Shown here: piece after piece, positions 19,142 to 50,252 of the stretch
Numbering within the stretch: the first letter of the stretch is position 1
Layout of the letters: each line of letters opens with the position of its first letter
Source: Thermoanaerobaculia bacterium
GTDB lineage: Bacteria; Acidobacteriota; Thermoanaerobaculia; UBA5066; Gp7-AA6
Direction: 5' to 3'
DNA: 64,000 nucleotides
NCBI GenBank assembly: GCA_041481715.1
Contig: JBGPCK010000001.1
Location: forward strand, 9,340-73,339
Program-made: the position numbers and the translations under genes
The notes under the pieces: model-generated
What the model saw: the letters and a program-made list of their open reading frames with translations, nothing else
The model's database searches: none
What the model was told of the DNA's origin: nothing

Positions 19142-19165
19142 CGGGAGACGTAATGGCGTCTCCCG
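19142..19165 (+). terminator. GC-rich 9-bp perfect inverted repeat (CGGGAGACG-TAATGG-CGTCTCCCG) 17 nt after skp stop; possible terminator/attenuator hairpin (no U-tract)
   Basis: Read directly in sequence at 19142-19165 inside the 276-nt skp-lpxD spacer. Confidence 0.3.
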
Positions 19166-20522: not shown

Positions 20523-20932
20523 AGATCCTGCCGCACCGCTATCCCTTTCTGCTCGTGGACCGCATTTTGGAGCTCGAAGCGGGCAAGCGCGTCGTGGGGA
20601 TCAAGAACGTCACCTACAACGAGGAGTTTTTTCAGGGGCACTTCCCCGGAAACCCCGTGATGCCGGGCGTACTCATCATCGAGGCGATGGCCCAGGTGGC
20701 GGGAGTGGGGCTGCTCGGAACGGTGCCGGACCCCGCCAAGAAGCTCCTCTACATGGCGGGCGTGGACCGCGCGAAGTTCCGGCGGCCCGTGGTCCCGGGA
20801 GACCAGCTGCGCCTGGAGGCGGAGATCGTGTCGCTCCGGATGCGGACGTGCAAGTGCCGCGCGCGGGCCCTGGTGGATGGGACGCTCTGTGCGGAGGCGG
20901 AGCTGATGTCCGTTCTGGTGGATCGTCCTTGA
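20495..20932 (+). CDS. fabZ: 3-hydroxyacyl-ACP dehydratase
   Basis: 145 aa. Hotdog fold motifs ILPHRYPFLLVDRI and FFQGHFPGNPVMPGVLIIEAMAQ. Confidence 0.9.
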   Translation: MELGIGEILKILPHRYPFLLVDRILELEAGKRVVGIKNVTYNEEFFQGHFPGNPVMPGVLIIEAMAQVAGVGLLGTVPDPAKKLLYMAGVDRAKFRRPVVPGDQLRLEAEIVSLRMRTCKCRARALVDGTLCAEAELMSVLVDRP

Positions 20933-29906: not shown

Positions 29907-30743
29907 CTAACGGACCTCGACGCCCAGAGACTTGAGGCGCGCCCTCGCCAGCCGCGCCTCCTCCGAAGCGGGGTACTCGTTCAGGACGTACTGTAGCTGG
30001 ACCACCGCTTCCGCCTTCTGGCCGACCTCGAGCATCGCATAGCCCTTCTTGAGCAGAGCGGCCGCGGCCTTGTCACTCTTGGGCCACTGTTTGAGCAGCT
30101 TGTCGAAGTCGGCCACCGCCTCGGCGAATTTCTTCTGGGCGTAGTGGCACTCACCGATCCAGTACTCCGCATTGTCCGTGAGGTCGGTGTTCGGGTAGTT
30201 GCGGACGTAGTCCTCGAAACCCTGAATGGCCAGTGCGTACCGCCCTTTGGTGTAGTCGGTCGAAGCCGTGTCGTAGAGCTCGGCGGGAGAAGGGCCGCCG
30301 GCCGGAGGGGCAACGACGGCGGTGTCCACGGCCGGAGGGCCGGAAGCGCCGCCGGCCGGCGGCGCGGCGCCGGCCGCGGAGCCCCGCATTCGCGCCAGGT
30401 CTCCCTGCGTCTCGGCAATCTGCTGCGAAAGTTGGGAGAGGCGCCGGTTGGTGTCTTCGAGCTTCGCCTCGAGCTGCTCCATCTTGGTGGTCAGCTCCCC
30501 GAGCTTGACTCCCATGTCGGCGTTGGACTTGAGCAACTGCTGGGTCTGTTGCGACACGCTGGAGTTGAGCTTCGCGACCTCTTCCTTGCTCGAGGACTTT
30601 CGCTCGAGGGCCTGGATCTCCTTCTCGATGTCGTTCATCTGCCGGTGCAGACCCTCGATGTCGCTCGAGGACACGCAGGCCGTGCCGATCAGGAGCGGAG
30701 CCGCCGCGAGGACGAGGAAGTTACGTTTCGCGAGGCTGGCCAC
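29907..30743 (-). CDS. ybgF: Tol-Pal system protein YbgF/CpoB
   Basis: 278 aa. Signal peptide, N-terminal coiled coil, C-terminal TPR-like region. Last gene of the tolQ-tolR-tolA-tolB-pal-ybgF cluster. Confidence 0.8.
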   Translation of the reverse strand: MASLAKRNFLVLAAAPLLIGTACVSSSDIEGLHRQMNDIEKEIQALERKSSSKEEVAKLNSSVSQQTQQLLKSNADMGVKLGELTTKMEQLEAKLEDTNRRLSQLSQQIAETQGDLARMRGSAAGAAPPAGGASGPPAVDTAVVAPPAGGPSPAELYDTASTDYTKGRYALAIQGFEDYVRNYPNTDLTDNAEYWIGECHYAQKKFAEAVADFDKLLKQWPKSDKAAAALLKKGYAMLEVGQKAEAVVQLQYVLNEYPASEEARLARARLKSLGVEVR

Positions 30744-30744
30744 G

Positions 30745-31311
30745 CTACTTTGCCGTGATCACGAGATGGCCACGCCGATTCTTCGTCCAGCACCCCTCGG
30801 TCGAGTCCGTGCAGAATGGCCGCTCTTCGCCGTAAGAAACCGTCTTGACGCGGCCGGCGTCCAGCCCGAGCGAGACGAGGTAGTCCTTCGCGGAATTGGC
30901 GCGCCGCTCACCCAGAGCGAGGTTGTACTCGTTGGTCCCGCGCTCGTCGCAGTGGCCTTCGATCAGGATCTGAACGGTCGGATACTTCTTGAGCCACTCG
31001 GCGTCGGTGGCCAGCGCCGACCGCGCGTCGTCGCGCAGCTCATATTTGTCGTAGTCGAAGTAAGCGTCCTGAAGATAGCCCCTCTGGTTGAGGTCTTGAA
31101 TGGAGGCCGAGAGCACCTTCTGAGAGTCGTCGGTGATGGGTGCCGAGCTGACCGGGGGCGCCACCGGGGTGGCCGCGGCCGACGGCGGCGTCTCGGCGGG
31201 GCGCTTCTCCTGGGCAGACGTCGGGGGCTTCTTCGCGCAGGCGGAGACCAGCCAAAGAGTGCCCACGGCCACGATGGCCAGGGAGAACAGCCTGGAAAGT
31301 TTCCTCTTCAT
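30745..31311 (-). CDS. pal: Peptidoglycan-associated lipoprotein Pal (OmpA family)
   Basis: Internal ATG with GAGAGAGG RBS. Lipobox LVSA-C. OmpA C-like domain (TVQILIEGHCDERGTNEYNLALGERRA). Confidence 0.9.
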   Translation of the reverse strand: MKRKLSRLFSLAIVAVGTLWLVSACAKKPPTSAQEKRPAETPPSAAATPVAPPVSSAPITDDSQKVLSASIQDLNQRGYLQDAYFDYDKYELRDDARSALATDAEWLKKYPTVQILIEGHCDERGTNEYNLALGERRANSAKDYLVSLGLDAGRVKTVSYGEERPFCTDSTEGCWTKNRRGHLVITAK

Positions 31312-31424
31312 TCCTCTCTCCTTGTCGTTGCGGCAACGCTTCAAAACCGTGTCGGGCGCGCGAGGCGCCGCGCGGAGGATACAAATATAGCAGACGCGGC
31401 GGCTTCGCGAGCTTTCTCGCGCGA

Positions 31425-32747
31425 TCAGGGCACCCACACCGGCTGGCTATTGTTGCCCGCGTCGGTCAGCAGGCGTTTGTTCTTCCCGTCCACCGCGTCC
31501 ATCGTGTAGATCTGCGTCGAGCCGCCGCGTCGCGACTGGTAGACGATCTTCCCGCCGTCCGGCGACCAGGCGGGATGGGAGTTGGACCCCTCCGAGGTGA
31601 GCTGCACCGTCCGTCCCGTCGCCAGGTCCATCACGCAGATGTTGAAGTCTCCCTCGTTGCGGCACGCAAAGGCAATTCGGGAGCCATCCGGAGACCAGGT
31701 GCCTTCGTCGTTCCAGTTTCCCGCGAACACCAACTGTCGAGGACTCGTTCCCTCGGCTTCCATGATCCAGATCTGGGGCACGCCGGTCTGGTCCGAGGTG
31801 TACAAGATCTGGCGCCCGGTGGGAGACCACTCGGGTGCGGCTTCGAGGGAGCGCGTGTTGGTCAGGCGCCGCAGATTGCCGCCGTTGGCGCCCACGACGT
31901 AGACGTCGGTGTTGCCGCGCTGGGAGCCGGCGAACACGATCTGCGACCCGTCGGGGGAGAGCGCGGGGGAGGCATTCAGGTCGACGCCCGTCGGGACCTC
32001 CCGCTTGTCGCTGCCGTCCACATTCATCGAGTAGATCTGAGGGAACGTGTGCACGTACGATGTGTAGACGATCCGTCCCCCGTGGCCGTTGGGGTTGATC
32101 GAGAGGGACTTGTGGGCGGTCAACGGGTGGACGTTGCGCCCGTCGAAATCCATCGCGTAGATCTCCTTGTTCTTGTCCCGATCGGACACGAACGCGATCG
32201 TCGAGAGGTAAAGGCCGTCCTTGCCGGTAAAGTACTTGACGAGGTCGTTGGCCAGCGTGTGCGCGATGCGGGAAACATAGGAGGCGCCGCCGGAGTAGCG
32301 GCGTCCGAGGACCATCTTTCGTGACTTGAGGTCCCAGACGCGCCCCTCGATCGCCACGCGGTCGCCGGATACTTCCGCCCGCGTGTCGACCAGAATTTCC
32401 GCTCCTCCCGACAGCCACCGCTCACCGGCGTCCGGCGTCGTCGGGTCGCGCACACCCGCGGGATAAAGCGAGGGATCGGCGAGGACGAAGATGTCGGAGT
32501 ATTCGACGTCCGAGCGCAATGTTGCCGTGAACGGTTCGACGACCGCGGAGGTGAGCGCCGCCGCTCCCGACGAAAGCAGCTCCGGAACGGCCACGGACAG
32601 GCGGCGAACTCCCTCTTTGCGGATGGTGATCTCGAGCTCCTGCGGTGTGGCGGAAGGGGGCGGGGTGGGCTGCCGCGTCTGCGCCTCGACGCACGGCGAT
32701 GAGGCGAGGGCGTAGAAACCCAGAAGGAGAGCGAGGAGTCTTTTCAT
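31425..32747 (-). CDS. tolB: Tol-Pal system beta-propeller protein TolB
   Basis: 440 aa. Signal peptide, TolB N-domain, six-bladed propeller repeats (SPDGSRIAF, WSPDGGKIVY). Confidence 0.9.
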   Translation of the reverse strand: MKRLLALLLGFYALASSPCVEAQTRQPTPPPSATPQELEITIRKEGVRRLSVAVPELLSSGAAALTSAVVEPFTATLRSDVEYSDIFVLADPSLYPAGVRDPTTPDAGERWLSGGAEILVDTRAEVSGDRVAIEGRVWDLKSRKMVLGRRYSGGASYVSRIAHTLANDLVKYFTGKDGLYLSTIAFVSDRDKNKEIYAMDFDGRNVHPLTAHKSLSINPNGHGGRIVYTSYVHTFPQIYSMNVDGSDKREVPTGVDLNASPALSPDGSQIVFAGSQRGNTDVYVVGANGGNLRRLTNTRSLEAAPEWSPTGRQILYTSDQTGVPQIWIMEAEGTSPRQLVFAGNWNDEGTWSPDGSRIAFACRNEGDFNICVMDLATGRTVQLTSEGSNSHPAWSPDGGKIVYQSRRGGSTQIYTMDAVDGKNKRLLTDAGNNSQPVWVP

Positions 32748-32769
32748 TCGAGGGTCTCCGCAGTTGCGA

Positions 32770-33513
32770 TCATTCGAATGTGACCGTCAGACCCACGTAG
32801 GGTCCCGACCAGTCCGCCGGCAGCGGGGGGAAGGACGAAGCCAGCACGGCCCGCACCGCGGCACGATCGACGAACGGTAGCCCGCTCGACTTGATGATCT
32901 CGGCGTCGGCGACGGTTCCGTCCCGGTTGATTCGAAAATGCACCTTGGGCGGAACGGGAATCGTCTGTGTCGGCTTGAACCAGTTCGTCGACAGGGCGAT
33001 CTGGATCGCTTCGATGTAGTAGCCGTATCGGAAATCCGGCTGGTCGAACTGAGCGCCTCCGATCCCGGCGTTGCCCCCGGCGCCCGCCGCCGATTGCGCC
33101 GTGCCGCCGCCCTGTCCCTCTCCCGAGCTCGGCAGCGAGACCTCCGGCGCCCGGGGCGCCGTGGCGCGAGACGGGGGAGGCGGCGTCGGCTTCTTCGTCC
33201 TCTTCTCCTCTTTGGCCGGAAGAAGGACTGCCTTGTCCGATGGCGGAGGCGGCGCCTCCTCCGGTGGCTTCTCGATCTTCGGCTTGGCGGGTTCCGGCGC
33301 GGCCGCCTGCGCCGCCTCGGCGCGAATGGATCCCGCCGATAGGATGCGCACCGCCACGGCGCGGGGCGGCGCGAGCTGCAACGGCCGGGCGAGAGAGGAG
33401 ACGAAGAACGCTCCTAAGAGGGCAAGATGCAGCACGATGGCCAGCAGCACCCCGGCGGCCCACGGGAAATCTTCTTTCTCTTTTTCGGCGAGGATCGTTC
33501 CGACGGCGTCCAT
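32770..33513 (-). CDS. TolA-like energy-transducing protein (TonB C-terminal domain family)
   Basis: N-terminal TM anchor, Pro/Ala/Lys-rich spacer, C-terminal TonB_C-like domain. Located between tolR and tolB. Confidence 0.75.
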   Translation of the reverse strand: MDAVGTILAEKEKEDFPWAAGVLLAIVLHLALLGAFFVSSLARPLQLAPPRAVAVRILSAGSIRAEAAQAAAPEPAKPKIEKPPEEAPPPPSDKAVLLPAKEEKRTKKPTPPPPSRATAPRAPEVSLPSSGEGQGGGTAQSAAGAGGNAGIGGAQFDQPDFRYGYYIEAIQIALSTNWFKPTQTIPVPPKVHFRINRDGTVADAEIIKSSGLPFVDRAAVRAVLASSFPPLPADWSGPYVGLTVTFE

Positions 33514-33532
33514 GCGAAGAGCTACGGGAAGC

Positions 33533-33961
33533 TCATTTCCCCTTCTTCCCGCCCGTGTCCGTGATCATCCCGAGGTTCTCGATGCCCATGCGATTCAAAA
33601 TGTCGAGTGTCTCGACGACGGTTCCGTAAGAGAGCGCCCGATCCGCCTTGAGGAAGACCGTCCGGTCCTTCCGGGTCTTCAGGAACGCCCGGAGCCTCTC
33701 TCGCAAGAGGCCGCGGGCCACCGGAGTCTCGTTGATGTAGTAGGCCCCTTCCCGGGTGATCGACAGGATCACCGGATCCTCGATGGACGTGGGCAGGTTG
33801 GTCGTCGCGGTGCGGGGCAATGCCACCGACACGCCTTGGTGGAGCATCGGGGCCGTGACCATGAAGATGACCAGGAGCACGAGCATCACGTCGACGAGGG
33901 GAGTGACGTTGATGTCCGCGAGGTGGTCGTACGGGTCGCCGGTTTGGTGTTGGAAGGCCAT
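33533..33961 (-). CDS. tolR: Biopolymer transport protein TolR/ExbD
   Basis: 142 aa. INVTPLVDVMLVLLVIFMV motif. Follows the TolQ homologue. Confidence 0.9.
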   Translation of the reverse strand: MAFQHQTGDPYDHLADINVTPLVDVMLVLLVIFMVTAPMLHQGVSVALPRTATTNLPTSIEDPVILSITREGAYYINETPVARGLLRERLRAFLKTRKDRTVFLKADRALSYGTVVETLDILNRMGIENLGMITDTGGKKGK

Positions 33962-34068
33962 GAATTCTCTAGGCGGAAGGCGTCGGGCACGAGATGGGGA
34001 ATCGAGACGGCGAGATCCGGTCGGTTCTTCCGATCCGCCTCACCTCTCACGCCTCACGCCGGACGACC

Positions 34069-34845
34069 TCAGGTGAAGTTCCTTTCCGCCAAATTGATGA
34101 ACTCCAGGGCAAAATCCTCCATTCCCGCCCGCTGCATGCGCACCTTCCCCATGAAGTAGTTGTAGAAGATGAGAGCGGGAATGGCCGCCGCGAGGCCCGC
34201 GGCCGTGTTGATGAGCGCCTCGGAGATGCCGGGAGCGACCGCCGCAATCGACGTCGATCCGGTGTTTCCGATTGCGCGGAAGGACTGCATGATGCCCCAG
34301 ACGGTTCCGAAGAGTCCGATGAAGGGGCAGGCCGAGGCCGTCGTGGCGAGAAAGGTCATGTACTTGGTCAGGCGAGAGACCTCGGCCGTGATGGCCCTCT
34401 CGAGGGCGCGCTCGACCCCCGAGATGTTCTTGATCAGGAGCTTGCCTGCGCCGCCGGCAGTGACCGCCGGATCCTCGGGGCGGTTCGCCTTGACCTGGGC
34501 GTCCAACTCCGCGTAGCCCGCCCGGAAGAGGGTGGTCAGCGGCGTATCGGGCAACTGGCTGGCGATGCCGTTGACCTCGGAAAAGCGCTTGGACTTTCGG
34601 AAGAAGCCGATGAACTTGTCCGACTGGCGTGCCACGCGGCGCAGGCGGAGGAATTTGGCGAAAATAATGATCCAGGAGATGAGCGAAAAGAGAAACAGGA
34701 TGCCGAGAACGACCTTGGCCGCCGGCCCCGTCTCCCGGAAGAAGGCCAGGAGAGAGTTGCCGCCGGGAAGGTTTTCGCTGGAGATCGGCTGAAAAAGTGC
34801 CGCGACCATCCCGGAGGACCGTAACATACGCATGGGAGAATTCAA
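34069..34845 (-). CDS. tolQ: MotA/TolQ/ExbB proton channel protein TolQ
   Basis: 258 aa. 3 TM helices, conserved C-terminal channel region (GLFGTVWGIMQSF, AIPALIFYNYF). Confidence 0.9.
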   Translation of the reverse strand: MNSPMRMLRSSGMVAALFQPISSENLPGGNSLLAFFRETGPAAKVVLGILFLFSLISWIIIFAKFLRLRRVARQSDKFIGFFRKSKRFSEVNGIASQLPDTPLTTLFRAGYAELDAQVKANRPEDPAVTAGGAGKLLIKNISGVERALERAITAEVSRLTKYMTFLATTASACPFIGLFGTVWGIMQSFRAIGNTGSTSIAAVAPGISEALINTAAGLAAAIPALIFYNYFMGKVRMQRAGMEDFALEFINLAERNFT

Positions 34846-34850
34846 AGGGA

Positions 34851-36680
34851 ATGGGACTTCGCCTCGGACGCGTTCTTGTTCGCGTGACGGCGCGCGTGGC
34901 CGGTGTGCTGCTCGCCCTGGCGCTCGTGACGGCGCCGGGCGTGGCGGCGGCCCAGCCGTCCGAGATTCTGCCCGCCGACCGGGTCGCGGCCGGCATGAAG
35001 GGCTACGGCCTGACCGACCTCGGCGACGGAAAGGGCGTTCAGCGGTTCGACGTCGAGATCATCGGGACCCTCAAGCGTTTTGCTCCGGGGCAGGACATGA
35101 TCCTGGCCCGTGTCTCGGGCGCCGAGCTCGAGCGCTCGGGAATCATCGCGGGAATGAGCGGCAGCCCGATCTACATCGACGGCAAGCTCGTGGGAGCCCT
35201 CGCCTACGGATGGCCGTTCGCCAAGGATCCGATCTGCGGCATTACGCCCATTCAGAGCATGCTCGACATCCGCAAGGCGCCGGCCTCTCCGCCCGTTCCG
35301 ATCGCCGGTGCGGCCGTGTCGACCGGGAACCTGATCGCCGCGGTGCGCGACGGGCGATTCCGTGCTGGGCTCGACGCGCTTCTCTCGGCGTTCCAGCCGG
35401 CCACGGCGGGCGCGATGGCGCCTCTGCCGCTCCCGGTTTCCTTCTCGGGCGGCCCGGCCGCGGGCGCCTTGGTCGGTCGGCTCGCCGAGACCGCCGGCTG
35501 GATGGCGGTTCCCTCGGGCGGTTCGGCCACCGCGCCCCTCTCGGCGGGCACGCTCGAGCCGGGCTCGGCCATCGCGACGGTGCTCATGTCGGGAGACATG
35601 GACGTCGCCGCAACCGGCACGGTGACCTGGGTCGAAGGATCGAGCGTGCTCGCCTTCGGGCATCCGTTCCTGTCGATGGGGCCGGTCGACATGCCGATGG
35701 CGGAGGCGACAGTCCTCACCGTGCTTCCGTCCGTCTTTCGCTCCTTCAAGTTCGCGGCCACCGGGAGCACGTTGGGATCGATTTCCCAGGACCGCTCGAG
35801 CGGAATCCTGGGCAGCTTCGGCGCGCGAGCGACGATGGTCCCGGTGCGGGTGCGCCTCTCGTCGGACGACATCCCGACCCAGACCTTCCAATTCGAGGTG
35901 GTCCACAACTCGATGCTGACGCCCATCCTGGCGGCAGTCGCGATCGACAGCGTCCTGACGACGATTGAGAAACGAACGGGGGAACGCACCCTGGTCTGGA
36001 AATCGGCCATCCGGACCCCGGACCGCGTTATCCCGTGGGAAACGGTTTTCACGGGCCTCGCGGCGCGCGAGGAAGCCGTGGCTTCCCTGGCTCTCTTGAC
36101 GAACTACCTGATGGCGAACGAATTTCAGGATCTGACCATAACGGGCCTCGACGTGGACATCCGTCACTCCGACCGGCTGCAGAGTGCCCGCGTGGTCAAC
36201 GTGGAGGCGGACCGAGGGAAGGTTCGTCCCGGTGAGTCGGTCCCAATTCATGTGGATTTGGTCGACTTCCGGGGCGGCACCCGACGTGTCTCCCTGATGG
36301 TTCGGGTACCGCCCGACACCCCGCCGGGGCCCCTCACGGTCTTCGTCGGGGACGGCGCTGCGGCCACCGCCTATGACCTCGCGCTCTACCCACCGGACCC
36401 GCGGTCGCTGGCGCAAGTGCTCGACTTTCTCGCGCGGGTGCGGCCTCCGAACACCTTGAACCTCTTGGCGGACCGACGCGCCCCCGGCGCCGTCGTAGCA
36501 GGAGAGGCGCTTGCCGCGCTGCCCCCGTCTTTGGGCGCGGTGCTGCTCGATCGCGGCCCCGGCGGAAGCGGCGCGCCGGACCTCTCTTCGGTGCGCCTCG
36601 AGTCGCAATCGATCGAGCAACCGGTTCCCGTCACGGGCTCGGTGCACCTTCGGCTCGAAGTCCTGCCGAGACTTTTTTGA
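34851..36680 (+). CDS. Secreted peptidase S55 (SpoIVB-type serine protease) domain protein
   Basis: Internal ATG gives signal peptide MGLRLGRVLVRVTARVAGVLLALALVTAPGVAAA. Catalytic-serine block GIIAGMSGSPIYIDGKLVGALAYGWPF matches SpoIVB GMSGSP motif. Upstream part of ORF 34797.. overlaps tolQ. Confidence 0.75.
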   Translation: MGLRLGRVLVRVTARVAGVLLALALVTAPGVAAAQPSEILPADRVAAGMKGYGLTDLGDGKGVQRFDVEIIGTLKRFAPGQDMILARVSGAELERSGIIAGMSGSPIYIDGKLVGALAYGWPFAKDPICGITPIQSMLDIRKAPASPPVPIAGAAVSTGNLIAAVRDGRFRAGLDALLSAFQPATAGAMAPLPLPVSFSGGPAAGALVGRLAETAGWMAVPSGGSATAPLSAGTLEPGSAIATVLMSGDMDVAATGTVTWVEGSSVLAFGHPFLSMGPVDMPMAEATVLTVLPSVFRSFKFAATGSTLGSISQDRSSGILGSFGARATMVPVRVRLSSDDIPTQTFQFEVVHNSMLTPILAAVAIDSVLTTIEKRTGERTLVWKSAIRTPDRVIPWETVFTGLAAREEAVASLALLTNYLMANEFQDLTITGLDVDIRHSDRLQSARVVNVEADRGKVRPGESVPIHVDLVDFRGGTRRVSLMVRVPPDTPPGPLTVFVGDGAAATAYDLALYPPDPRSLAQVLDFLARVRPPNTLNLLADRRAPGAVVAGEALAALPPSLGAVLLDRGPGGSGAPDLSSVRLESQSIEQPVPVTGSVHLRLEVLPRLF

Positions 36681-36685
36681 GCCGA

Positions 36686-38851
36686 ATGCGGGGGGGCGTC
36701 ATCCTTCTCGCGGCGGGCCTCTGCCTGCCCGCGGGATCGCTCCCGGCAGCGGAGACACGCATCTGGGTCTCCGATTCCGCATCGGACTTCTCCGCCGGCG
36801 AGGCGCGCGGCGTCTCGGTGACCGGTGACGGCGCGCTCGCCCTTTCACGGGGCATCCAGCCCGTGGCCGGGATCGGTGAAGCCGCGATCTACGCGGTCAC
36901 CGAGGGCAAAGACGACACGATCTACCTCGGCACGGGGGACTCCGGGAAGATTCTGCGCGTGGCCGGCGGCCGGGCCGAGACCGCGGCGACGCTTCCGGAG
37001 AAGGAGATCACTGCGCTTGCCCTGGGAGCGGACGGAGCCCTCTACGCGGGCGCCTCCCCCGGGGGGAAGGTGTACCGCGTCTCGGGAGGCAAGGCGGAGG
37101 TCTATTACGAGACCGGTGCGAGATACGTCTGGGCGCTCGAGTTCGTGGGCTCCTCGCTCTACGTCGCGACGGGCTTGCCGGGGGAAATCCATCGCGTCGC
37201 GTCCGCGCGCAAGGGAGAGCGCGTCCACACGGCCTCTGATCCGCACGTCAAGACGCTCTTTCGGGATACGCAGGGTCGTCTCTGGGCCGGAACGGCGGGG
37301 TCCGGGCTGGTCCTGCGTCTCGAGCCTTCCGGATCCGTGTCCACCGTCTACGACTCTTCGAAGACCGAGATTTCCTCCATCACGCAAAGCGCGGACGGCC
37401 GCGTCTGGGCGGCGGCTGTGTCGGCGGAGGCCGCGCCGGGGGCTGGGGAGCCGATCAGCGCTCCGGTCGCGCTGCCGACGGGAAAGCCGGCGCGCGCCGC
37501 CGGCCGGGAAGACGATGAGGGCCGGGATAAGCCGGAAGTCTCCGTGAGCGTCTCCTCCGTTCGGGTCGCTCCGCCGCGGCCTTCGGGCAAGGGCGCCTAC
37601 TCCTCGGAGGTCGTGATCTTTCCCGACGACGAGCCGCCCCGTAGCGTCTGGTCGAGCACGGAGGAGCTTGTCTTCTCCCTCGAGCCGGCGGGCAACAAGG
37701 GCGACGTGCTCGCGGGGACGGGGCCGAACGGGAAGCTCTACCGGATCTCGAACGGCTCCTGGTCGCTCGACCGGACACTCGACGAGAAGCAGGTCACGGT
37801 CCTCGCGGGCAACGCCATCGCGACCAACGGCTCCTGCGCCGTCTACCGGCTCGTCGACGGTCCGCGCAAGGGCGAGTACGTCTCGGCGGTCAAGGACACC
37901 GGCCGCACGAGCCGTTTCGGAGCCTTCCGGTGGGAAGGCGAGATTCCATCCGGTGCCGATGTGGAATTCTCCTTCCGCTCGGGCGAGTCGCAGGTTCCCG
38001 ACGCCGCCTGGAGTGCGTGGTCCCCTCGGGTCGCGGCGGCGCAGGCCTCGAAGGTTGGCGCGCCTCCGGGCCGCTACCTGCAGTGGAAGGTTCAAATGAG
38101 CTCGGACGGGAAGGCGATACCGGCCATCCGACGCGCCGAGGCCGCGTACCGCAACCGCAACGCGGCGCCGGACATCGAGAGCTTGACCGCAATGGCGCCG
38201 GCAGAGGTTCTCGCGCGGGCCGCCGCGGGCGGCATGAACGTCTTCGAGACGCAGGCGCCGGACGAGAAGGGGATCTTCACGGGCCTGGAGGAGCCGAAGT
38301 CCGAGAGCGCGCCGCGCAAGCTCCTTCGGAAGGGATACCGCACGTTGACCTGGAAGGCGAGCGACCGGGATGGTGACGCCCTCTCCTACGAAATCCGGGT
38401 GCGGCCAGCCGGATCCGACCGGTGGGTCTTGCTGCGAAAGGATCTCAAGGAGTCCTTCTACGCTTTCGACACGACGTCGCTGCCCGACGGAGACTACGTC
38501 TTCCGCTTGATCGCTTCCGATGCCGAGGTCAATCCCGACGAACCGAAGACGGCCACGCGAGACTCTTCCCCCGTGCGGATCGACAACACGCCTCCGGTGA
38601 TCCGCCGCCTGGCCGCCTCGGGGGCCGCGCTGCGCCTCGAGGCCGCGGACGCGGGCTCGCCGATTCTCGAGGCCCAGTACAGCGTGGACGCCAAGGAGTG
38701 GGTGCGCATCGAGCCCGAGGACGGGCTCTCCGACTCGCCCTTGGAGACCTACACGATCCCGCTGGAAGGCGCGCGGCACGGGGCGTATGTGCTGGTTCGC
38801 GTGACGGACGCCGCGCGTAACGTCGCCGCAGCGAGCTTCACGGTCCCGTAG
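36686..38851 (+). CDS. Secreted beta-propeller repeat protein (hypothetical)
   Basis: ATG 5 nt after S55 peptidase stop. Signal peptide MRGGVILLAAGLCLPAGSLPAAE. Repeated blade-like motifs (DGALYAG, GKVYRV, GRLWAGT, DGRVWAA, GKLYRIS). C-terminal Ig-like region. Confidence 0.65.
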   Translation: MRGGVILLAAGLCLPAGSLPAAETRIWVSDSASDFSAGEARGVSVTGDGALALSRGIQPVAGIGEAAIYAVTEGKDDTIYLGTGDSGKILRVAGGRAETAATLPEKEITALALGADGALYAGASPGGKVYRVSGGKAEVYYETGARYVWALEFVGSSLYVATGLPGEIHRVASARKGERVHTASDPHVKTLFRDTQGRLWAGTAGSGLVLRLEPSGSVSTVYDSSKTEISSITQSADGRVWAAAVSAEAAPGAGEPISAPVALPTGKPARAAGREDDEGRDKPEVSVSVSSVRVAPPRPSGKGAYSSEVVIFPDDEPPRSVWSSTEELVFSLEPAGNKGDVLAGTGPNGKLYRISNGSWSLDRTLDEKQVTVLAGNAIATNGSCAVYRLVDGPRKGEYVSAVKDTGRTSRFGAFRWEGEIPSGADVEFSFRSGESQVPDAAWSAWSPRVAAAQASKVGAPPGRYLQWKVQMSSDGKAIPAIRRAEAAYRNRNAAPDIESLTAMAPAEVLARAAAGGMNVFETQAPDEKGIFTGLEEPKSESAPRKLLRKGYRTLTWKASDRDGDALSYEIRVRPAGSDRWVLLRKDLKESFYAFDTTSLPDGDYVFRLIASDAEVNPDEPKTATRDSSPVRIDNTPPVIRRLAASGAALRLEAADAGSPILEAQYSVDAKEWVRIEPEDGLSDSPLETYTIPLEGARHGAYVLVRVTDAARNVAAASFTVP

Positions 38852-38898: not shown

Positions 38899-40563
38899 GT
38901 GCGCCCGCCGCCGACGATCCTCCTGGCAATCACCCTTCTCTCCGCCTGCCGCCCGAAGGAGGCCGGAGCCCCGAGCGGCGGCGTCGCTCGCATACCGACC
39001 CCACCGGCGAGCGGCTCCCTCAAGGGCGCCGCTGCGGAGAGCGGGACGCTGCGTCGGCGGCTCTTCGGCGAGCCCGGCACACTCAACGCCGTCCTCCAAA
39101 GCGACGTGCCCGAACAGCTCGTTCTGCAGTATCTCTCGCGAAACCTCTTCGACTTCGACTCCCGCATGAACCTCGTGCCGGGGCTGGCGGAGCGGATCGA
39201 GTTCTCGCCCGATGGTCTGGCCTGTACCATCTCTCTTCGATCGGAGGCGGTATGGGAGGACGGCACGCCGGTCACGCCGGCCGATGCGGTCTTCACCATC
39301 CGCAAGATCGCCGACCCGGGGACCGCGTCGCCCCTCTACAAGGCCCTCTTCCAGGAGCTGGTTTCGGTCGAGGAGGCCGGTCCGCGGTCGTTCCGGGCCC
39401 GATTCCGAGAGCCCTACGCGTACCGCGCGATGGCCTTCGCGATGCCGCTGCTTCCGGCGCGCCGCTTCGCGCGTCAAGCCTTCGAGCGCGCCCCGGACAA
39501 CCGAGCTCCGCTCTCCAACGGTCCCTACCGCCTCGTCTCGTGGAGGGCGCAGGAGTCGATCGCACTCGAACGCAACCCGCGCTACTGGGGGCCGCCCGGC
39601 CGCTTCGACCGGGTCTTCTTCCGGATCCTGCCCGAGAACTCCGTGGCCTATCGGGCTCTGCTCCAAGGGGACCTGGACGAAACCTGGATTGACGCGGCGC
39701 TCAAGCAACGCGCGGCGCAAGATCCGGCCTTTGCCGCATGCTGCCGCCTGGTCGAGTTTTACGACCTCGACTACAACTACATCGCGCTCAACGCCCGCCT
39801 CCCGTTCTTTGCCGACGCGCGCGCCCGCCGGGCCCTGACGATGCTGCTCAACCGGCAGTCGATCGCGCAAACCTTGTACGAGGGCTCGGCGCGGGTCATC
39901 TCGGGGCCCTGGGCGCCGGAGTCGCCGGCCTACGACGCGACGGTTGCGCCCCTCCCTTTCGATCCGAAGGAGGCCGCGGTCCTGCTCGAAGAAGCCGGCT
40001 GGCGCGACAGCAACGGCAACGGCATTCGGGACCGCAACGGCCGGGAGTTCGATTTCGAGCTGCTCGTTTCGGCGGGAAATACGATTGGGCGTCAGATCGA
40101 CGAGACGTTCGCCGCGGAGCTGGCGCGCGCAGGCGTGCGGGCCCGTGTGCGGACTCTCGAATGGGCGAGCTTCGTCGAGCGCCTGGATTCGGGCTCGTTC
40201 GAAGCCGCCTCGCTCGCCTCGAGTGCCTCCGACCCGAACCCGGACCCGTACCCTTACTGGCACTCCTCGCAGTGGCCTCCGCGGGGCTTGAACAGCGGCT
40301 TCTACCGCAACCCCGTCGCGGACCGGCTGATGGAGGAGGCGCGCCGCGAGCGGGATGAAAAGCGGCGAATCGCCCTGTTTCACCGGCTTCATCGCATCTT
40401 CCGGGACGACGCCCCGGCGATCTTCGTGGTCAACGCAACCAAGAAGTACGCGCTTTCGCGAGCTCTCGAGGGCGTCGAGACTTCGCCACTCGGGCCCTTC
40501 GGGATCTGGCCTGGGCCTCTGGCCTGGTCGATGCCGGCTGCGCCTGCCAGAGTCGCGCCGTGA
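38899..40563 (+). CDS. ABC transporter substrate-binding protein, peptide/nickel family (SBP_bac_5), lipoprotein
   Basis: 554 aa. Lipobox LLSA-C. Family motifs (SNGPYRLVSW, ERNPRYWG). Confidence 0.85.
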   Translation: MRPPPTILLAITLLSACRPKEAGAPSGGVARIPTPPASGSLKGAAAESGTLRRRLFGEPGTLNAVLQSDVPEQLVLQYLSRNLFDFDSRMNLVPGLAERIEFSPDGLACTISLRSEAVWEDGTPVTPADAVFTIRKIADPGTASPLYKALFQELVSVEEAGPRSFRARFREPYAYRAMAFAMPLLPARRFARQAFERAPDNRAPLSNGPYRLVSWRAQESIALERNPRYWGPPGRFDRVFFRILPENSVAYRALLQGDLDETWIDAALKQRAAQDPAFAACCRLVEFYDLDYNYIALNARLPFFADARARRALTMLLNRQSIAQTLYEGSARVISGPWAPESPAYDATVAPLPFDPKEAAVLLEEAGWRDSNGNGIRDRNGREFDFELLVSAGNTIGRQIDETFAAELARAGVRARVRTLEWASFVERLDSGSFEAASLASSASDPNPDPYPYWHSSQWPPRGLNSGFYRNPVADRLMEEARRERDEKRRIALFHRLHRIFRDDAPAIFVVNATKKYALSRALEGVETSPLGPFGIWPGPLAWSMPAAPARVAP

Positions 40564-41540
40564 TCCGCTACACGCTCCGGCGTCTGGCGCTCGCTGTGCC
40601 GACACTGGCGGGGATCGTCGTTCTGGTGTTCCTCCTTCTCCATCTGGCGCCGGGCAGCCCCGTCAGCGCGATGGGGGCGGAGTCGGGCCGACGTGTCTCG
40701 GCCCGCGCGGCAGAGGAGATGCGCCGCCAGTACGGGCTCGACCGGCCGCTGCCCGAGCGTTTCGGCGCCTGGATCGGCCGGATCGCGCGCCTGGATCTGG
40801 GCGAGTCCTTCGTCGATCGCCGGCCAGTGGGAGAGCGAATTCGGGAAGCACTGCCATACACGCTCCTGTTGAACGGGCTCGCCCTGCTTCTGACGCTCGG
40901 GATCGCGATCCCGCTCGGCGTCGCGGCGGGCGGGCGGCCCGAGGGCCCGCTCGACCGCGTGTCGGGCGTCGCCCTCTTCGCCCTGTATTCGCTGCCCTCG
41001 TTCTGGGCGGCCTTGCTTCTCCAGGCGCTCTTCTCGGTGCGTCTGCGGTGGCTTCCTCTCTACGGCGTGGCGTCCGACTCGGCACCAACGGGCCTGGGCG
41101 GACTGCTCGACCGGTTGGAACATCTGGCGTTGCCCGTGGTCTGCCTGACGTACGGCTCGCTCGCCTTCTTCGCGCGGCTGGTTCGGTCCGGCGTCGCGGA
41201 GATGCGGCAGCAGGACTTCGTTCTCGCGGCGCGGGCCCGGGGCGCCTCGGCCCGCCGGGCGCTCTGGGCGCATGCCTTCCGCAACGCACTCCTACCGCTG
41301 ATCACGCTACTCGGTCTGGTGCTGCCGGGGCTGCTTTCCGGCAGCGTCATCATCGAAAAGATCTTCGCCTGGCCGGGGGTGGGACGCCTCTACTTCGACT
41401 CCATCCTCGCCCGGGACTATCCGGTCGTGCTGGCGCTCTCCCTGCTCGGCGCCGTCGCGACGCTCGCCGTCACGCTGGCGGCGGACCTGGCCTACGCGCT
41501 TGCCGATCCCCGTGTCCGGGACGGCACGGAGGCCCGTTGA
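40560..41540 (+). CDS. ABC transporter permease (DppB/OppB-like)
   Basis: 326 aa. BPD_transp_1 signature region (LARARGASARRALWAHAFRNALLP). Confidence 0.85.
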   Translation: MIRYTLRRLALAVPTLAGIVVLVFLLLHLAPGSPVSAMGAESGRRVSARAAEEMRRQYGLDRPLPERFGAWIGRIARLDLGESFVDRRPVGERIREALPYTLLLNGLALLLTLGIAIPLGVAAGGRPEGPLDRVSGVALFALYSLPSFWAALLLQALFSVRLRWLPLYGVASDSAPTGLGGLLDRLEHLALPVVCLTYGSLAFFARLVRSGVAEMRQQDFVLAARARGASARRALWAHAFRNALLPLITLLGLVLPGLLSGSVIIEKIFAWPGVGRLYFDSILARDYPVVLALSLLGAVATLAVTLAADLAYALADPRVRDGTEAR

Positions 41541-42388
41541 GCGCCGCTCAAGAGCTCTCGGTCCCTCTAGCCCGGCCCCGCGCCGGGCTGCCCGGCAGCG
41601 GCGGGGTCGCTTTGGCCATCGTGGTTCTTCTGTGGCTCGTTGCCGCGATCTCTCCGCTCTGCGCGCGGCGCGCCGCCGAGATCCGGCTGGAGGAGCGCCT
41701 GGCCTCTCCTTCCGCGACTCACCCTTTTGGCACCGATGATCTCGGTCGGGACCTGCTCGCCCGAGTGGTGGTCGCCACACCGATCTCGCTCGCCATCGGC
41801 CTGACGGCGGCGGCGGTGTCTGTTCTCGTGGGGTTTGCCGTGGGGGCAAGCGCCGGCTACTTCGGCGGAGTGACGGATCTGGTGCTTTCGCGGCTCGTCG
41901 AAGTCGTGCTTTGCTTCCCGGTACTTTTCCTGCTGCTCGCGCTGGCGGCGTTCCTGCCGCCCTCTCCAACGGCGGTGATTCTCGCGATCGGCCTGACCAC
42001 GTGGCCCGGCGACGCGCGGTACGCTCGAGCGGAGGTCCTGAAGGTCAAGGATCTTGACTATGCGCGCGCCGCGCGCGCCGCCGGAGCCTCGGCTCCCCGT
42101 ATTCTGATTCGGCATCTGCTGCCCAACATCCTTCCGCCCCTGCTCGTTTCGGCGGCGTTCGGCGTGGCCTGGGCGATTCTGGCGGAAGCGGCGCTCTCGT
42201 TTCTGGGCGTGGGGCTGCCCGCCTCGACGACCTCCTGGGGCGGGATCCTTGCGGCGGCGCCGACCTACATCGAGGAGGCGTGGTGGATGGCGCTGTTCCC
42301 CGGCCTCGCCCTCTTCCTCACGGTCGCCGCCTATAATCTGCTCGCCGAGGGCTTGCGCTCGAGAACGGTCGGGCGGGGGAGGGGTTGA
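41537..42388 (+). CDS. ABC transporter permease (DppC/OppC-like)
   Basis: C-terminal part of shadow ORF 40355..42388. TTG at 41537 overlaps the upstream stop. EAA-like region (ARAAGASAPRILIRHLLPNILPPL). Confidence 0.8.
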   Translation: MSAAQELSVPLARPRAGLPGSGGVALAIVVLLWLVAAISPLCARRAAEIRLEERLASPSATHPFGTDDLGRDLLARVVVATPISLAIGLTAAAVSVLVGFAVGASAGYFGGVTDLVLSRLVEVVLCFPVLFLLLALAAFLPPSPTAVILAIGLTTWPGDARYARAEVLKVKDLDYARAARAAGASAPRILIRHLLPNILPPLLVSAAFGVAWAILAEAALSFLGVGLPASTTSWGGILAAAPTYIEEAWWMALFPGLALFLTVAAYNLLAEGLRSRTVGRGRG

Positions 42389-42867
42389 TGCCAAAACGTG
42401 TGGCGCTCTACCCGGGCTCCTTCGACCCGCTGACCAACGGTCACCTCGACATTCTCTCGCGTGCCCGGCGCCTGGCCGACAGCGTGGTCGTGGCGATTCT
42501 CGAGAACGACGCCAAGACGCCCCTCTTCTCGGTCCCGGAGCGAATCGCAATGATTCATGAGAACGTGGGAGCGGACCCCGCGGTCACCGTTCGCTCCTTC
42601 TCCGGCCTTCTGGTCGATTTCGCCAAGGCCTCGGGCGCCTCCTTGATCGTTCGGGGCCTGCGCGCGGTGTCGGACTACGAGTACGAGCTGCAGATGGCCC
42701 TGATGAACCGGCGCCTGTCCCCGGAGGTCGAAACGGTATTCCTGATGGCCAAGGAGGAGTACTCCTACGTCTCGAGCCGCCTGGTCAAGGAGGTGGCGCG
42801 GCTGGGCGGGGATCTTACCGGCCTGGTACCCGAGACCGTGCGGACGAGGCTGGTCGCCCTCTTCTGA
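42385..42867 (+). CDS. coaD: Phosphopantetheine adenylyltransferase
   Basis: 160 aa. YPGSFDPLTNGHLDI (T/HxGH) motif. Confidence 0.9.
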   Translation: MMPKRVALYPGSFDPLTNGHLDILSRARRLADSVVVAILENDAKTPLFSVPERIAMIHENVGADPAVTVRSFSGLLVDFAKASGASLIVRGLRAVSDYEYELQMALMNRRLSPEVETVFLMAKEEYSYVSSRLVKEVARLGGDLTGLVPETVRTRLVALF

Positions 42868-45932: not shown

Positions 45933-46385
45933 TCACTTCGGCCCGATCTCGGCCCGGAGGTGCACCTTCGGCGCGTCGGCGATATCGATCGTCCGCATCC
46001 GCGTCGACACGCGGATGTCGTCGTCGAGCTTGTCGGCGTCCACGGTGTCGCTACGGTCGCTCGCCTTGAGCGTATTGCCGCTCTTGTCGAGCACCTCGAC
46101 CCAGAGCCGAATCTTGCACTTCACGTCGCCGCGGTTCTCGACGTTGAACTCCCACCAGAGCCAGGAGTGATCGCTGGGGTTTTCACGGCGCGCCTTCTCG
46201 ATGTCGTCGCGGTCGGGGTAGTTTCGCAGTTCGACGCTCAAGACCGAACAGCGGCCAGAGGTCCAGCCGAGTCGGGCCACGCCCGTGCGGGGAACCGGGA
46301 TCGTCTTCTCGAAGCTCTGCTGCGCAGCCGCGCCCACGCTCAAGGAGGCGCCCAGAAGAGCCAGGGTCAGGGTTCGGTTCTTCAT
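45933..46385 (-). CDS. Small secreted hypothetical protein
   Basis: Internal ATG gives MKNRTLTLALLGASLSVGAAAQQ signal peptide, ~150 aa. Remainder of ORF 45933..46616 upstream is probably untranslated. Confidence 0.5.
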   Translation of the reverse strand: MKNRTLTLALLGASLSVGAAAQQSFEKTIPVPRTGVARLGWTSGRCSVLSVELRNYPDRDDIEKARRENPSDHSWLWWEFNVENRGDVKCKIRLWVEVLDKSGNTLKASDRSDTVDADKLDDDIRVSTRMRTIDIADAPKVHLRAEIGPK

Positions 46386-46466
46386 GTTTGTACACTCCTC
46401 CGGGCGTATTATGATGGTGTGGACGAGCCGGAAGACCGCCCCGAACTGCATGTCATCGATATCTTC

Positions 46467-46691
46467 ATGATGTCGGTCAAATGCGGTAACTGCGATACTT
46501 ACCAGACTGTTGTCCGTTTCGCGAAGCAGGCGGAACGGAACGTCTATACGTACGAATGTGAGAATGAAACCTGCGATCCCAATGTGACGCGTACTCTGAT
46601 CGAAGTGCCGCGGCACCTCGACAATTCGACCCGCCGGGCCGAGGAATTACCGTACTTCGCGAAGGACGAGCCCGAGGAGGGCTCCGCTTGA
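46467..46691 (+). CDS. Small zinc-ribbon-like protein (CGNC..CENETC), hypothetical
   Basis: 74-aa C-terminal portion of shadow ORF 45804..46691 starting MMSVKCGNC. Locally AT-richer sequence with real-gene-like codon pattern. Two Cys pairs. Confidence 0.4.
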   Translation: MMSVKCGNCDTYQTVVRFAKQAERNVYTYECENETCDPNVTRTLIEVPRHLDNSTRRAEELPYFAKDEPEEGSA

Positions 46692-48225: not shown

Positions 48226-49119
48226 TCAGCGGGTCAGGGTGACTGCGTCGGGTGCGCCGCCCTCGGGCCCGGAGATCGTCACCGGGAGCTGGAGCGTCAG
48301 GAAGTTGGCGGCTCCGCTGAGGTCCCAGACGAGATTCTGGAAGCCGCGCAGGGACGCGCCGGGGCCCGGCCGGATGACGCGGGAAAGTACGTCTTCGCCC
48401 CGCTTCGGGGCATAGGGCGGGGAAAAGAAGGCGTACGAGACAAAGCCCGACTCGTTGATCCCGGCCTGAATGAGATAGTCGGTCTCGAGCGATTCGACGA
48501 GGAGGTAGTGCGCGGGCGCGCCGCCGTGGCCGGCTCCCTCGAGCGCCCGCCACAGCCGTGTCCGCTCGGGCACCCAGCCGGGAAGCGAAAGGAAATCGAT
48601 CGAGAGGGCCGCGCCCGCCGGCTCTCCGGCCAGAGCCGCCGTGGCCTCCGTCAGGCGGCGTCCGCCGTCGGGCGTGATCCGATAGCCGGCTCCGGCTCCA
48701 CCGCGGCCTGGGTCCGTGAAGATGAGGCTTGCGGCGAGAATCCCGCCGTCGCGGCCGCTCTCGACGGAGACCTCCTTGAGGACGGGGCGGGGAGGATTCG
48801 TGCCGAGGATCTTGGAGACCTGGCCATGCCACCGGCCGGAGAGGTCGAGCGCGCCGGGAGTGGGAGCGGCAGCGGCCGGCGGGCCGGCCGATTCCGTGCT
48901 CCGGGAGGTCCGGCTAAGCCACAGGAGAGCGGCAAGGACAACCACCCCGGCCGCGGCCGCCAGCCACCGCGCACCGCGCGTCGCGGGGGGTTTCGTCGTC
49001 GGCACGGCGGGCGCCCCTTCCGCCGAGGGGGCAATGCCCGTGAGCGTTTCTCCGCAGCGCCGGCAGCGCTCGGCCGGGAACTGGCGGAAGCGGCAGCGCG
49101 GACAGACGATGGATGCCAT
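48226..49119 (-). CDS. Hypothetical membrane protein with N-terminal zinc ribbon (CPRC..CRRC) and extracytoplasmic domain
   Basis: 297 aa. Double CxxC at N-terminus, one TM helix (WLAAAAGVVVLAALLWL), then a globular domain. Confidence 0.5.
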   Translation of the reverse strand: MASIVCPRCRFRQFPAERCRRCGETLTGIAPSAEGAPAVPTTKPPATRGARWLAAAAGVVVLAALLWLSRTSRSTESAGPPAAAAPTPGALDLSGRWHGQVSKILGTNPPRPVLKEVSVESGRDGGILAASLIFTDPGRGGAGAGYRITPDGGRRLTEATAALAGEPAGAALSIDFLSLPGWVPERTRLWRALEGAGHGGAPAHYLLVESLETDYLIQAGINESGFVSYAFFSPPYAPKRGEDVLSRVIRPGPGASLRGFQNLVWDLSGAANFLTLQLPVTISGPEGGAPDAVTLTR

Positions 49120-49142: not shown

Positions 49143-50198
49143 CTAGATCTCGCGGAAGAAAAAGCGGTCGAGCACGGACAGCCTCTGCCGGTCGAAGTCG
49201 GGCTCCATCAGCCACAGGGCCGCGACGATCGAGGAGGCGAGCGAGTTGCCGTCTTGCGGCGTGAAGCAAAAGCCCACGACCTCCCGGTCTCCGCTCAGGG
49301 TCACGGTGGGGGCCGCCACGACGGCCTGCGACAGAATGCGCCCGTAATACCCGTGGTCGCGCCCGAAGGAGAAGATCTGATTGGCGGATCGCTTTTCGGT
49401 GAAGGCGATCCGCCGGTTGGCGCGCAGCTTGTCGAGGGCCTTCTCGCGCGTGGTCGGGCGGTTGAACTCGAGATCGAACCAGAGCGAGTGCATGTACTGG
49501 GTGTTCAGCTTCATCGCCGAGGAGAAGAGCCTGGGCTTCCAGCCGATCGTCTCGAGCAGGCGCGAGGCGTCCCGGGCGTGGTGCGTTCCGTAAACCGGGT
49601 CGTCGTGCTTGCCGGCGGATGGAGCCGGAGCGAAGCTCGAATCTTGCGAGACGTCGTTGGAGCGGCGCATGCAAACGAAGCGGCCGCGCTCGAGTGCCGA
49701 GCCGCCCGCGCCGTTCTCCCCGAGTGTCTTGACGAGGGCGGCGATGTTGTGGGTATTGCAGGACACGATCTGGAGGAAGCGATCCTTCCCCTCCTCGAGC
49801 GCCTCATCGTTGATGCCCACCGCGTATGGCTTGCCGAAGCCAAACTCGCTGCCCTGCGCAAGGAATCCCCTGGGACCGGCGAGCTTCTCGTAGACCTTCT
49901 TGTTCTCGTTGCCGGCGGGCGTGCAGTCGATGACGACCGTCGCCCGCTCGAGGGCCTCCTGCGCCTCATAGGAGACCTCGTGGCCGAGCGCCTCGAAGTC
50001 GGTCTTCTTGTCCGGGTCGGCGGCGAGCTTGGCGCCGCGCTGGAGCAGGTGGTTGACCTTGGCGCGCTCGGTCGTCATCGGGGTGCGCTTGTGGAAGGTG
50101 ACCTCGTCGACGCCGAGGTGCTTGTTGAAGTCGGTGAAGAGACCGATCAGGGGCTCTCCGATCGTGCCGGTGCCGACGATGTGGACGACCTTCTTCAT
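49143..50198 (-). CDS. Type II (archaeal-type) glyceraldehyde-3-phosphate dehydrogenase family protein
   Basis: C-terminal 351 aa of ORF 49143..50843, start ATG with AGGAGA RBS. Rossmann VHIVGTGTIGE, block VIDCTPAGNENKKVYEKL, catalytic-Cys block QIVSCNTHNIAALVKTL matching archaeal GAPDH VSCNTTGL. Confidence 0.65.
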   Translation of the reverse strand: MKKVVHIVGTGTIGEPLIGLFTDFNKHLGVDEVTFHKRTPMTTERAKVNHLLQRGAKLAADPDKKTDFEALGHEVSYEAQEALERATVVIDCTPAGNENKKVYEKLAGPRGFLAQGSEFGFGKPYAVGINDEALEEGKDRFLQIVSCNTHNIAALVKTLGENGAGGSALERGRFVCMRRSNDVSQDSSFAPAPSAGKHDDPVYGTHHARDASRLLETIGWKPRLFSSAMKLNTQYMHSLWFDLEFNRPTTREKALDKLRANRRIAFTEKRSANQIFSFGRDHGYYGRILSQAVVAAPTVTLSGDREVVGFCFTPQDGNSLASSIVAALWLMEPDFDRQRLSVLDRFFFREI

Positions 50199-50252
50199 GG
50201 TTTCTCCTGTGAGCCGCCGGAACTCCCAACGCAAGGGCGCCAGAAGGATACG

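Follow-up and report, generated by a model that had tools for sequence, protein, structure and literature searches.

Two adjacent genes, which we call A and B, lie on the forward strand of a 64,000-nucleotide stretch of DNA from a Thermoanaerobaculia bacterium (Acidobacteriota; GenBank assembly GCA_041481715.1, contig JBGPCK010000001.1, positions 9,340 to 73,339). This whole stretch is referred to below as the window, and positions are counted from its first nucleotide. Gene A encodes a putative exported serine protease related to peptidase family S55, and gene B encodes a predicted exported protein with a beta-propeller and immunoglobulin (Ig)-like domains. Both open reading frames (ORFs) are present in the ORF list of the window at the positions given by an initial annotation of this DNA. 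The coordinates of all features are collected in Table 1. We tentatively interpret the pair as a two-protein module for regulatory proteolysis in the cell envelope.

The stop codon of A and the ATG of B are 5 nt apart, as the initial annotation had claimed, and B encodes 721 amino acids rather than the 722 counted there. An alternative TTG start of B at position 36677 overlaps the TGA of A as TTGA (a 4-nt overlap). With either the 5-nt gap or the 4-nt overlap, translational coupling of the two genes appears plausible. The gap between A and B in relatives ranges from 0 to several hundred nt. A longer ORF is also available for A, from a GTG at 34797, and it would overlap tolQ. Both proteins were expected to be secreted, and their N-termini agree with this: each starts with a basic and a hydrophobic stretch and an Ala-rich leader, so that both carry putative export signals.

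Downstream of B follow genes for a family-5 solute-binding protein and two ATP-binding cassette (ABC) permeases, and then coaD. The binding-protein gene starts 48 nt after B, three 4-nt overlaps lead from there to coaD, and no terminator-like site was found between B and the binding-protein gene. Because of these short gaps and overlaps and the absence of such a site, the genes from A through coaD are likely to form a single operon. The importer cluster (38899-42867) contains no ATPase genes and runs into coaD, and related genomes retain this layout. On the other side of A, the probable start of the divergent tolQ (34809 or 34845, minus strand) is only about 5-40 nt from the start of A. Therefore, both divergent promoters must sit inside the neighbouring coding regions. 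A consensus scan of the 34809-34851 region revealed no sigma-70-like promoter.

The initial annotation had singled out the motif GMSGSPIY (A residues 101-108, nt 35151-35174) as an S55 catalytic-serine block, and profile searches bear this out. A matches the Pfam profile PF05580 (Peptidase_S55) with 36.7 bits (E 5.9e-9) at a gathering cut-off of 25 bits, and Ser103 within the motif (nt 35157-35159) aligns with the catalytic Ser378 of SpoIVB (PDB 9lnf). The match covers A residues 59-130, i.e., profile positions 130-201 of 210 only. The sole PDB sequence match of A is the same SpoIVB structure (E 1e-6 for the single sequence with phmmer and 2e-10 for the family profile with hmmsearch), and the family profile matches it in the Ser-barrel stretch only. 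The program hhalign places barrel 1 of A on SpoIVB residues 328-396 with a probability of 96-97%. The SpoIVB query sequence was checked against chain 9lnf_A. The narrower label “SpoIVB-type” claims too much, only the Ser barrel matching S55. The score of A against the SpoIVB equivalog TIGR02860 is 34.3 bits, below the cut-off of 305.25 bits; the order of the catalytic residues differs; and no PDZ domain was matched in Pfam or NCBIfam, the structural model showing a signal peptide that leads straight into barrel 1.

The AlphaFold2 model of A was built with 138 homologues and has a mean predicted local distance difference test score (pLDDT) of 83.5 and a predicted template modelling score (pTM) of 0.82. 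It consists of a signal helix, a six-stranded barrel, a helical linker, a second barrel, and alpha/beta and beta-sandwich domains. One of the two predicted barrels superposes on known clan-PA proteases. In a Foldseek search of the PDB, SpoIVB 9lnf was found with probability 1.00, and SpoIVB, MarP of M. tuberculosis and DegS were found at 0.99-1.0. Each of these matches spans 107-125 columns, that is, one barrel only. The C-terminal region (residues 341-609) has no Pfam match, and it is kept at full length among relatives that are 30-40% identical.

We analyzed conservation within the A family in an alignment of 117 representatives, 29-66% identical to A. Eleven columns are invariant (G101, S103, G104, S105, P106, G115, A116, G238, G248, H271, and D314), of which Ser103, Ser105, His271, and Asp314 alone are polar. 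In the strand order of the model, His271 (nt 35661-35663, in AFGHPF) comes after the third strand of barrel 2, and Asp314 (nt 35790-35792) falls between strands five and six. Read from this secondary-structure order, the two residues would occupy the positions of His57 and Asp102 in the N-terminal barrel of chymotrypsin. A motif built from near-invariant residues of the family, GTxT-x(8-12)-GH, is present in 112 of the 117 members. It occurs once in SpoIVB, where it ends exactly at the catalytic His236; among composition-matched shuffles, only 0.2% contain it (p about 0.002). There is also a weak match of A residues 300-323 to SpoIVB 276-299 (hmmsearch E 0.005 in a one-sequence search; 2 of 200 shuffles reach the hhalign score). 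A global hhalign alignment of barrel 2 to the N-terminal barrel of SpoIVB is no better than alignments of shuffles. Mean-field coupling analysis of 540 sequences (effective number, Meff, 247) gave some pairs between A residues 117-125 and 283-318, near the expected interface of the barrels.

The conserved His271 sits 168 residues after Ser103, and no barrel is located N-terminally to the Ser barrel. In SpoIVB the order is the opposite, His236 preceding Ser378 (PMC12502668). From the Ser-His-Asp order of A, as against His before Ser in SpoIVB, we conclude that A, as modelled, has a circularly permuted S55/clan-PA fold, with the Ser barrel first and the His/Asp barrel second, and no PDZ domain. 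In the literature that we searched, we found no clan-PA protease described as circularly permuted. According to our residue count on the hhalign alignment, Asp314 pairs with Asn290 of SpoIVB, and the catalytic triad of SpoIVB is non-canonical in the crystal structure (PMC12502668). Thus A may be a more orthodox enzyme than SpoIVB.

The description of B as a propeller and Ig-like protein agrees with what we found. B scores 38 bits against the Pfam family Reg_prop (PF07494; cut-off 20.4), and its AlphaFold2 model (pLDDT 79.8) shows a seven-bladed propeller, a beta-sandwich and two Ig-like domains. In Foldseek, B is most similar to the periplasmic sensor domains of two hybrid two-component systems from Bacteroides, BT4663 and BT4673 (E about 1e-10 to 1e-11; best 2e-11). 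These sensor domains (Reg_prop and Y_Y_Y) share with B the Reg_prop repeat and the order of a propeller followed by Ig-like domains. Unlike them, B has one propeller instead of two and an extra beta-sandwich, and it has no Y_Y_Y, transmembrane, kinase, receiver or DNA-binding (AraC) domain. The Y_Y_Y family was not detected in B, nor was a transmembrane segment or cytoplasmic part; the protein ends at residue 721 after the two Ig-like domains. Virginiamycin B lyase matches the propeller alone (template modelling score, TM, 0.8, normalised on the target), and two enzyme families of Pfam match below their thresholds (SGL, 17 bits with a cut-off of 26.3; Vgb_lyase, 28 bits with a cut-off of 50). 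Conservation among 37 homologues of 27-37% identity concerns mainly structural Gly, Pro, Trp, and Asp residues of the repeats. We read B, from its model and these patterns, as a probable binding or sensing scaffold, non-enzymatic in nature.

Two segments of B, residues 250-302 (nt 37433-37591) and 510-547 (nt 38213-38326), are predicted to be disordered (pLDDT below 50) and are nearly invariant within Thermoanaerobaculia. They could be docking or processing sites specific to this lineage. We rejected them as general cleavage or docking sites, since they are variable or absent in distant homologues.

Genes of the A family are widespread. A search of 1.84 billion representative proteins returned 6,437 clusters at 50% identity with E<=1e-3, including 2,185 with E<=1e-30. 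Most clusters contain proteins of about 600 amino acids that match A over the full length at 33-40% identity. The named members belong to Thermoanaerobaculia, Pyrinomonadaceae, other Acidobacteriota, and Latescibacteria, and databases already label many of them “SpoIVB peptidase S55 domain-containing protein”; S55 was widely detected in acidobacteria in a comparative-genomics survey (PMC8841776). The view that an S55 domain is unusual in a non-sporulating diderm is thus incorrect. The family seems to be known to databases only as a domain match; its architecture, its fixed partner and its linkage to sigma and anti-sigma genes appear undescribed in the literature that we searched. To our knowledge, the single characterised member of S55 is the sporulation protease SpoIVB.

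The initial annotation regarded A and B as a two-gene module, and comparison with relatives confirms the association. The arrangement of cpoB-pal-tolB-tolA-tolR-tolQ divergent from A, B, the binding-protein gene, the permease genes and coaD is syntenic in 80 genomes of Thermoanaerobaculia and other Acidobacteriota. Because the whole region is syntenic, conservation of A-B or of its Tol-Pal neighbourhood in these genomes says little on its own. The informative set consists of distant metagenome loci, in which the A homologue is 30-38% identical to A; 68 of them could be evaluated for B. In 54 of the 68, the gene that follows A directly on the same strand is a homologue of B, and the pair also occurs, among unrelated neighbours, on a contig from Latescibacteria. 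Such conservation of A-B is far more than chance would give. No third gene was found to be conserved with the pair across the distant loci.

A second, less regular association concerns sigma factors. Each of three distant loci looked up carries a gene for an extracytoplasmic function (ECF) sigma factor and a gene for a zf-HC2 anti-sigma factor, convergent with B. Profiles built from these three pairs were then run on the distant A-B loci. An orthologous pair is situated immediately downstream of B in 16 of the 38 evaluable loci and upstream of A in one more. Beyond L164-L166 (Table 1), there are 13 further loci of this kind, e.g., L091, L111, L121, L140, and L163. The linked loci fall in at least two clades, and their outer flanks are unrelated. 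The sigma factors are of the RpoE/SigW/SigM-like ECF type, and the anti-sigma factors are single-pass zf-HC2 proteins with a periplasmic domain of about 100 residues.

A promoter of the GGAAC-N16-GTCTAA type is found approximately 50-110 nt upstream of 15 of the 17 sigma genes. For the remaining two (L095 and L166) the strict pattern gave nothing, and a looser scan did detect such a promoter in both. Promoters of this type are the classic signature of RpoE autoregulation, as in the sigma-E regulon of E. coli. No such promoter is present upstream of A, either in the sigma-linked loci or in the window. We considered A and B as regulon members of the adjoining sigma factor and ruled this out, the promoter being upstream of the sigma genes and not of A. 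Control of A-B by the sigma factor therefore does not account for the linkage.

Several known systems help to place the pair. SpoIVB of Bacillus subtilis (MEROPS S55.001) is a signalling protease that acts upstream of an intramembrane proteolysis releasing a sigma factor. A resembles it in the homologous Ser barrel, the GxSGxP nucleophile motif, the GTxT...GH motif around the catalytic His, and export. Unlike SpoIVB, A has no PDZ domain, has its barrels reversed (Ser before His), carries an extra C-terminal region of about 270 residues and possesses an invariant Asp314 at the canonical Asp102 position, where SpoIVB has Asn290 according to hhalign. Its host is a non-sporulating diderm, it has a conserved propeller partner, and its neighbours are Tol-Pal, an ABC importer and coaD rather than sporulation genes.

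Another parallel is the DegS-RseB-RseA-RpoE pathway (and PrsW-RsiW-SigW), with which many relatives of A share a periplasmic clan-PA serine protease next to an RpoE/SigW-like sigma factor and a single-pass ZAS-type anti-sigma factor with a GGAAC...GTCTAA autoregulated promoter. In that pathway, RseB or the PDZ domain of DegS gates cleavage, and a separate periplasmic protein could do so for A. Unlike DegS, A is S55-like and not S1C, and has neither a PDZ domain nor, apart from its signal peptide, a membrane anchor; B bears no relation to RseB, and anti-sigma cleavage by A is suggested by gene linkage only, a linkage that is absent from the window genome. Pairing of a periplasmic serine protease with a non-catalytic repeat protein or propeller that selects or funnels substrates, as proposed for A-B, is known from Prc-NlpI, CtpA-LbcA, and tricorn. 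These systems differ from A-B in protease fold (S41) and in adaptor (TPR lipoproteins), and none of them is related to A-B in sequence. In tricorn, unlike in A-B, the propellers are fused to the protease.

We prefer to read A and B as a two-protein module of the envelope that carries out site-specific, regulatory proteolysis, the likely substrate in many lineages being an anti-sigma factor; we estimate the probability of this reading at roughly 0.45. According to this reading, both proteins would be exported to the cell envelope. A would be an active serine endopeptidase of the S55/clan-PA lineage, with a triad of Ser103 and His271/Asp314 presumably juxtaposed across the swapped barrels. B would most likely act as the sensor, adaptor or substrate-presenting partner of A and bind to it. 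A most likely cuts an envelope protein site-specifically, in a regulatory manner, rather than digesting proteins in bulk. For much of the family, A probably acts on a single-pass zf-HC2 anti-sigma factor, the partner of an RpoE-type ECF sigma factor, and cleaves it in its periplasmic domain. A would then be a counterpart of DegS, or of SpoIVB acting upstream of intramembrane proteolysis by SpoIVFB. In the window genome, A-B is probably co-transcribed with the peptide-type ABC importer genes and coaD, and it adjoins Tol-Pal without, in this reading, being a component of it. A stronger claim is that A-B is a so far unrecognised machine that feeds signals to RpoE-type ECF sigma factors in Acidobacteriota, Latescibacteria, and their relatives: B would detect an envelope cue and license the permuted A for the site-1 cut of the anti-sigma factor. 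We regard it as rather doubtful.

A number of observations weigh against the proteolytic module with an anti-sigma substrate. No sigma/anti-sigma pair is present in the window or within 6 kb in the 80 related loci, so that the anti-sigma target is extrapolated to the window genome from homologues of about 35% identity. The sigma linkage itself could be inherited synteny. The distant loci without an adjacent B form two clades of the A family. Barrel 2 has no significant sequence match of its own, residues ~225-340 and residues 131-609 both giving none in the PDB or Pfam, and the coupling analysis mentioned above showed no overall enrichment of inter-barrel pairs. Our literature search found no experimental characterisation of any member of the A family.

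Among the alternatives, the position of A-B invites a link to Tol-Pal: the pair could be, in the manner of Prc-NlpI or CtpA-LbcA, an envelope-remodelling protease with its adaptor that degrades peptidoglycan hydrolases or outer-membrane and periplasmic proteins in division or envelope maintenance. A-B does diverge from tolQ in the window, as the initial annotation had pointed out, this layout is kept in the 80 related genomes, and other envelope genes (bamA, lpxD) accompany those of Tol-Pal in the wider window. As a general link, the adjacency fails: tolQ is next to A in only two of the distant loci, L107 and L158, and most distant A-B loci have no Tol-Pal neighbour, so the adjacency is specific to the lineage of the window. 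Within Thermoanaerobaculia, where cpoB through coaD is wholly syntenic, it is only weakly informative on function, and no peptidoglycan-related gene is linked to A-B. We therefore consider this explanation unlikely. The same genomic neighbourhood also suggests a nutritional role, i.e., that A-B digests extracellular or periplasmic proteins and the adjoining peptide-type importer takes up the products. It would suit the closely spaced binding-protein and permease genes, which follow A-B without a terminator and recur in the same order in the distant loci L086, L087, L153, and L158. Cultured Thermoanaerobaculia grow on proteinaceous substrates. Against this, the transporter is linked to A-B in only about 5 of the 68 distant loci; almost all distant loci that keep the transporter or coaD belong to the window's own branch of the tree, with L153 as the sole exception. 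The cluster has no ATPase genes. Unlike typical scavenging proteases, A is represented by one gene in each of the approximately 160 recovered loci, conserved at full length and in a core-gene setting. Moreover, SpoIVB-type enzymes are specific endopeptidases (PMC12502668). A nutritional function thus seems distinctly improbable.

The roles of the two proteins might also be reversed, A being a catalytically dead scaffold and B an enzyme with a propeller of the lactonase or lyase type. Some sources label B as “sugar lactone lactonase YvrE” or “streptogramin lyase”, in line with the sub-threshold SGL and Vgb_lyase matches and the TM of 0.8 to Vgb lyase. Those profile scores are far under the cut-offs, though, the conserved residues of B are mostly structural, and Ser103, His271, and Asp314 are invariant across the A family. 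We give this possibility very little credence.

The Tol-Pal cluster next to the module and several features farther away in the window are described here as context. In the Tol-Pal cluster, tolQ is identified by a MotA_ExbB match and the TolA position is held by a TonB_C-like gene (Pfam). The protein encoded there (32770-33513, minus strand) has a TonB_C/TonB_2 C-terminal domain and a Pro/Ala/Lys-rich linker. A sub-threshold TonB_C-like C-terminus was also seen in the anti-sigma factor of L164. A core envelope and housekeeping block at 13232-21708 includes genes for a ClpB-type AAA+ chaperone (13232-15664), BamA with POTRA repeats (15865-18378), and LpxD (19401-20522); the ORFs after LpxD probably encode FabZ and LpxA. 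A GFO_IDH_MocA oxidoreductase is encoded in the lpx region of the window (21791-22756). In the Latescibacteria locus L081, a gene of the same family (6814-7803) immediately precedes the A homologue, and another is found in the Pyrinomonadaceae locus L083 (3168-4151), about 3.8 kb upstream of the A homologue with three genes between them. This recurrence may be a coincidence. Four ORFs of 226-566 amino acids (8021-9502, 45933-46616, 48226-49119, and 49143-50843) have a gene-like guanine and cytosine content at third codon positions and match no Pfam family at E<=1e-5. PADLOC and PHROGs searches gave no matches that would indicate a defence or phage origin.

Table 1. Coordinates of the A-B locus, its neighbours and the sigma/anti-sigma pairs of three distant loci
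Feature	Position	Strand	Description
Divergent Tol-Pal cluster	29907..34845	-	cpoB, pal, tolB, tolA-like, tolR, tolQ (Pfam); context, outside the module
Gene A	34851..36680	+	ATG start at 34851, stop ends at 36680, 609 aa; predicted exported S55-related serine protease, permuted, without PDZ domain
Signal peptide of A (putative)	34851..34955	+	Residues ~1-35; basic N-region, hydrophobic helix 14-27, AAA/QP motif, low-confidence N-terminal helix in the model
A barrel 1	34983..35273	+	Residues 45-141; counterpart of the chymotrypsin-fold C-terminal barrel; six strands, terminal helix 134-141
A linker/insert	35274..35561	+	Residues 142-237; mostly helical, variable; pLDDT 53-88, poorly conserved in alignments
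A barrel 2	35562..35870	+	Residues 238-340; predicted counterpart of the chymotrypsin-fold N-terminal barrel
A C-terminal alpha/beta and beta-sandwich domains	35871..36677	+	Residues 341-609, ~270 residues; family-specific; confident AlphaFold2 model
Gene B	36686..38851	+	ATG start at 36686, 721 aa; predicted exported propeller/Ig-like protein
B seven-bladed beta-propeller	36758..37855	+	Residues 25-390, with disordered insert 250-302 (model strand pattern)
B beta-sandwich	37865..38191	+	Residues 394-502; conserved SG...PD..WS.W motif
B two Ig/fibronectin type III (FN3)-like domains	38336..38842	+	Residues 551-719; sub-threshold Big_3_3, fn3 and Big_13 matches
Co-directional genes 3' of B	38899..42867	+	Family-5 solute-binding protein, two ABC permeases, coaD (Pfam)
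Sigma/anti-sigma pairs convergent to B	L164 11922-13246; L165 11038-12377; L166 11255-12606		RpoE/SigW-like ECF sigma factor and single-pass zf-HC2 anti-sigma factor

The results indicate that the S55 branch in non-sporulating diderms is much larger than the characterised one and itself uncharacterised. Its members differ in domain order, have a Ser/His/Asp set that looks canonical, and come with a fixed propeller partner. Specialists in protein evolution and in proteases would find a circularly permuted chymotrypsin fold of interest. If the sigma/anti-sigma link is functional, A-B becomes a candidate for both the site-1 protease and the sensor in the envelope-stress signalling of Acidobacteriota, a major soil phylum that has received little study. 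If this is true, SpoIVB-type signalling proteolysis would not be an invention of sporulation but a part of an older and wider way of sigma-factor control.

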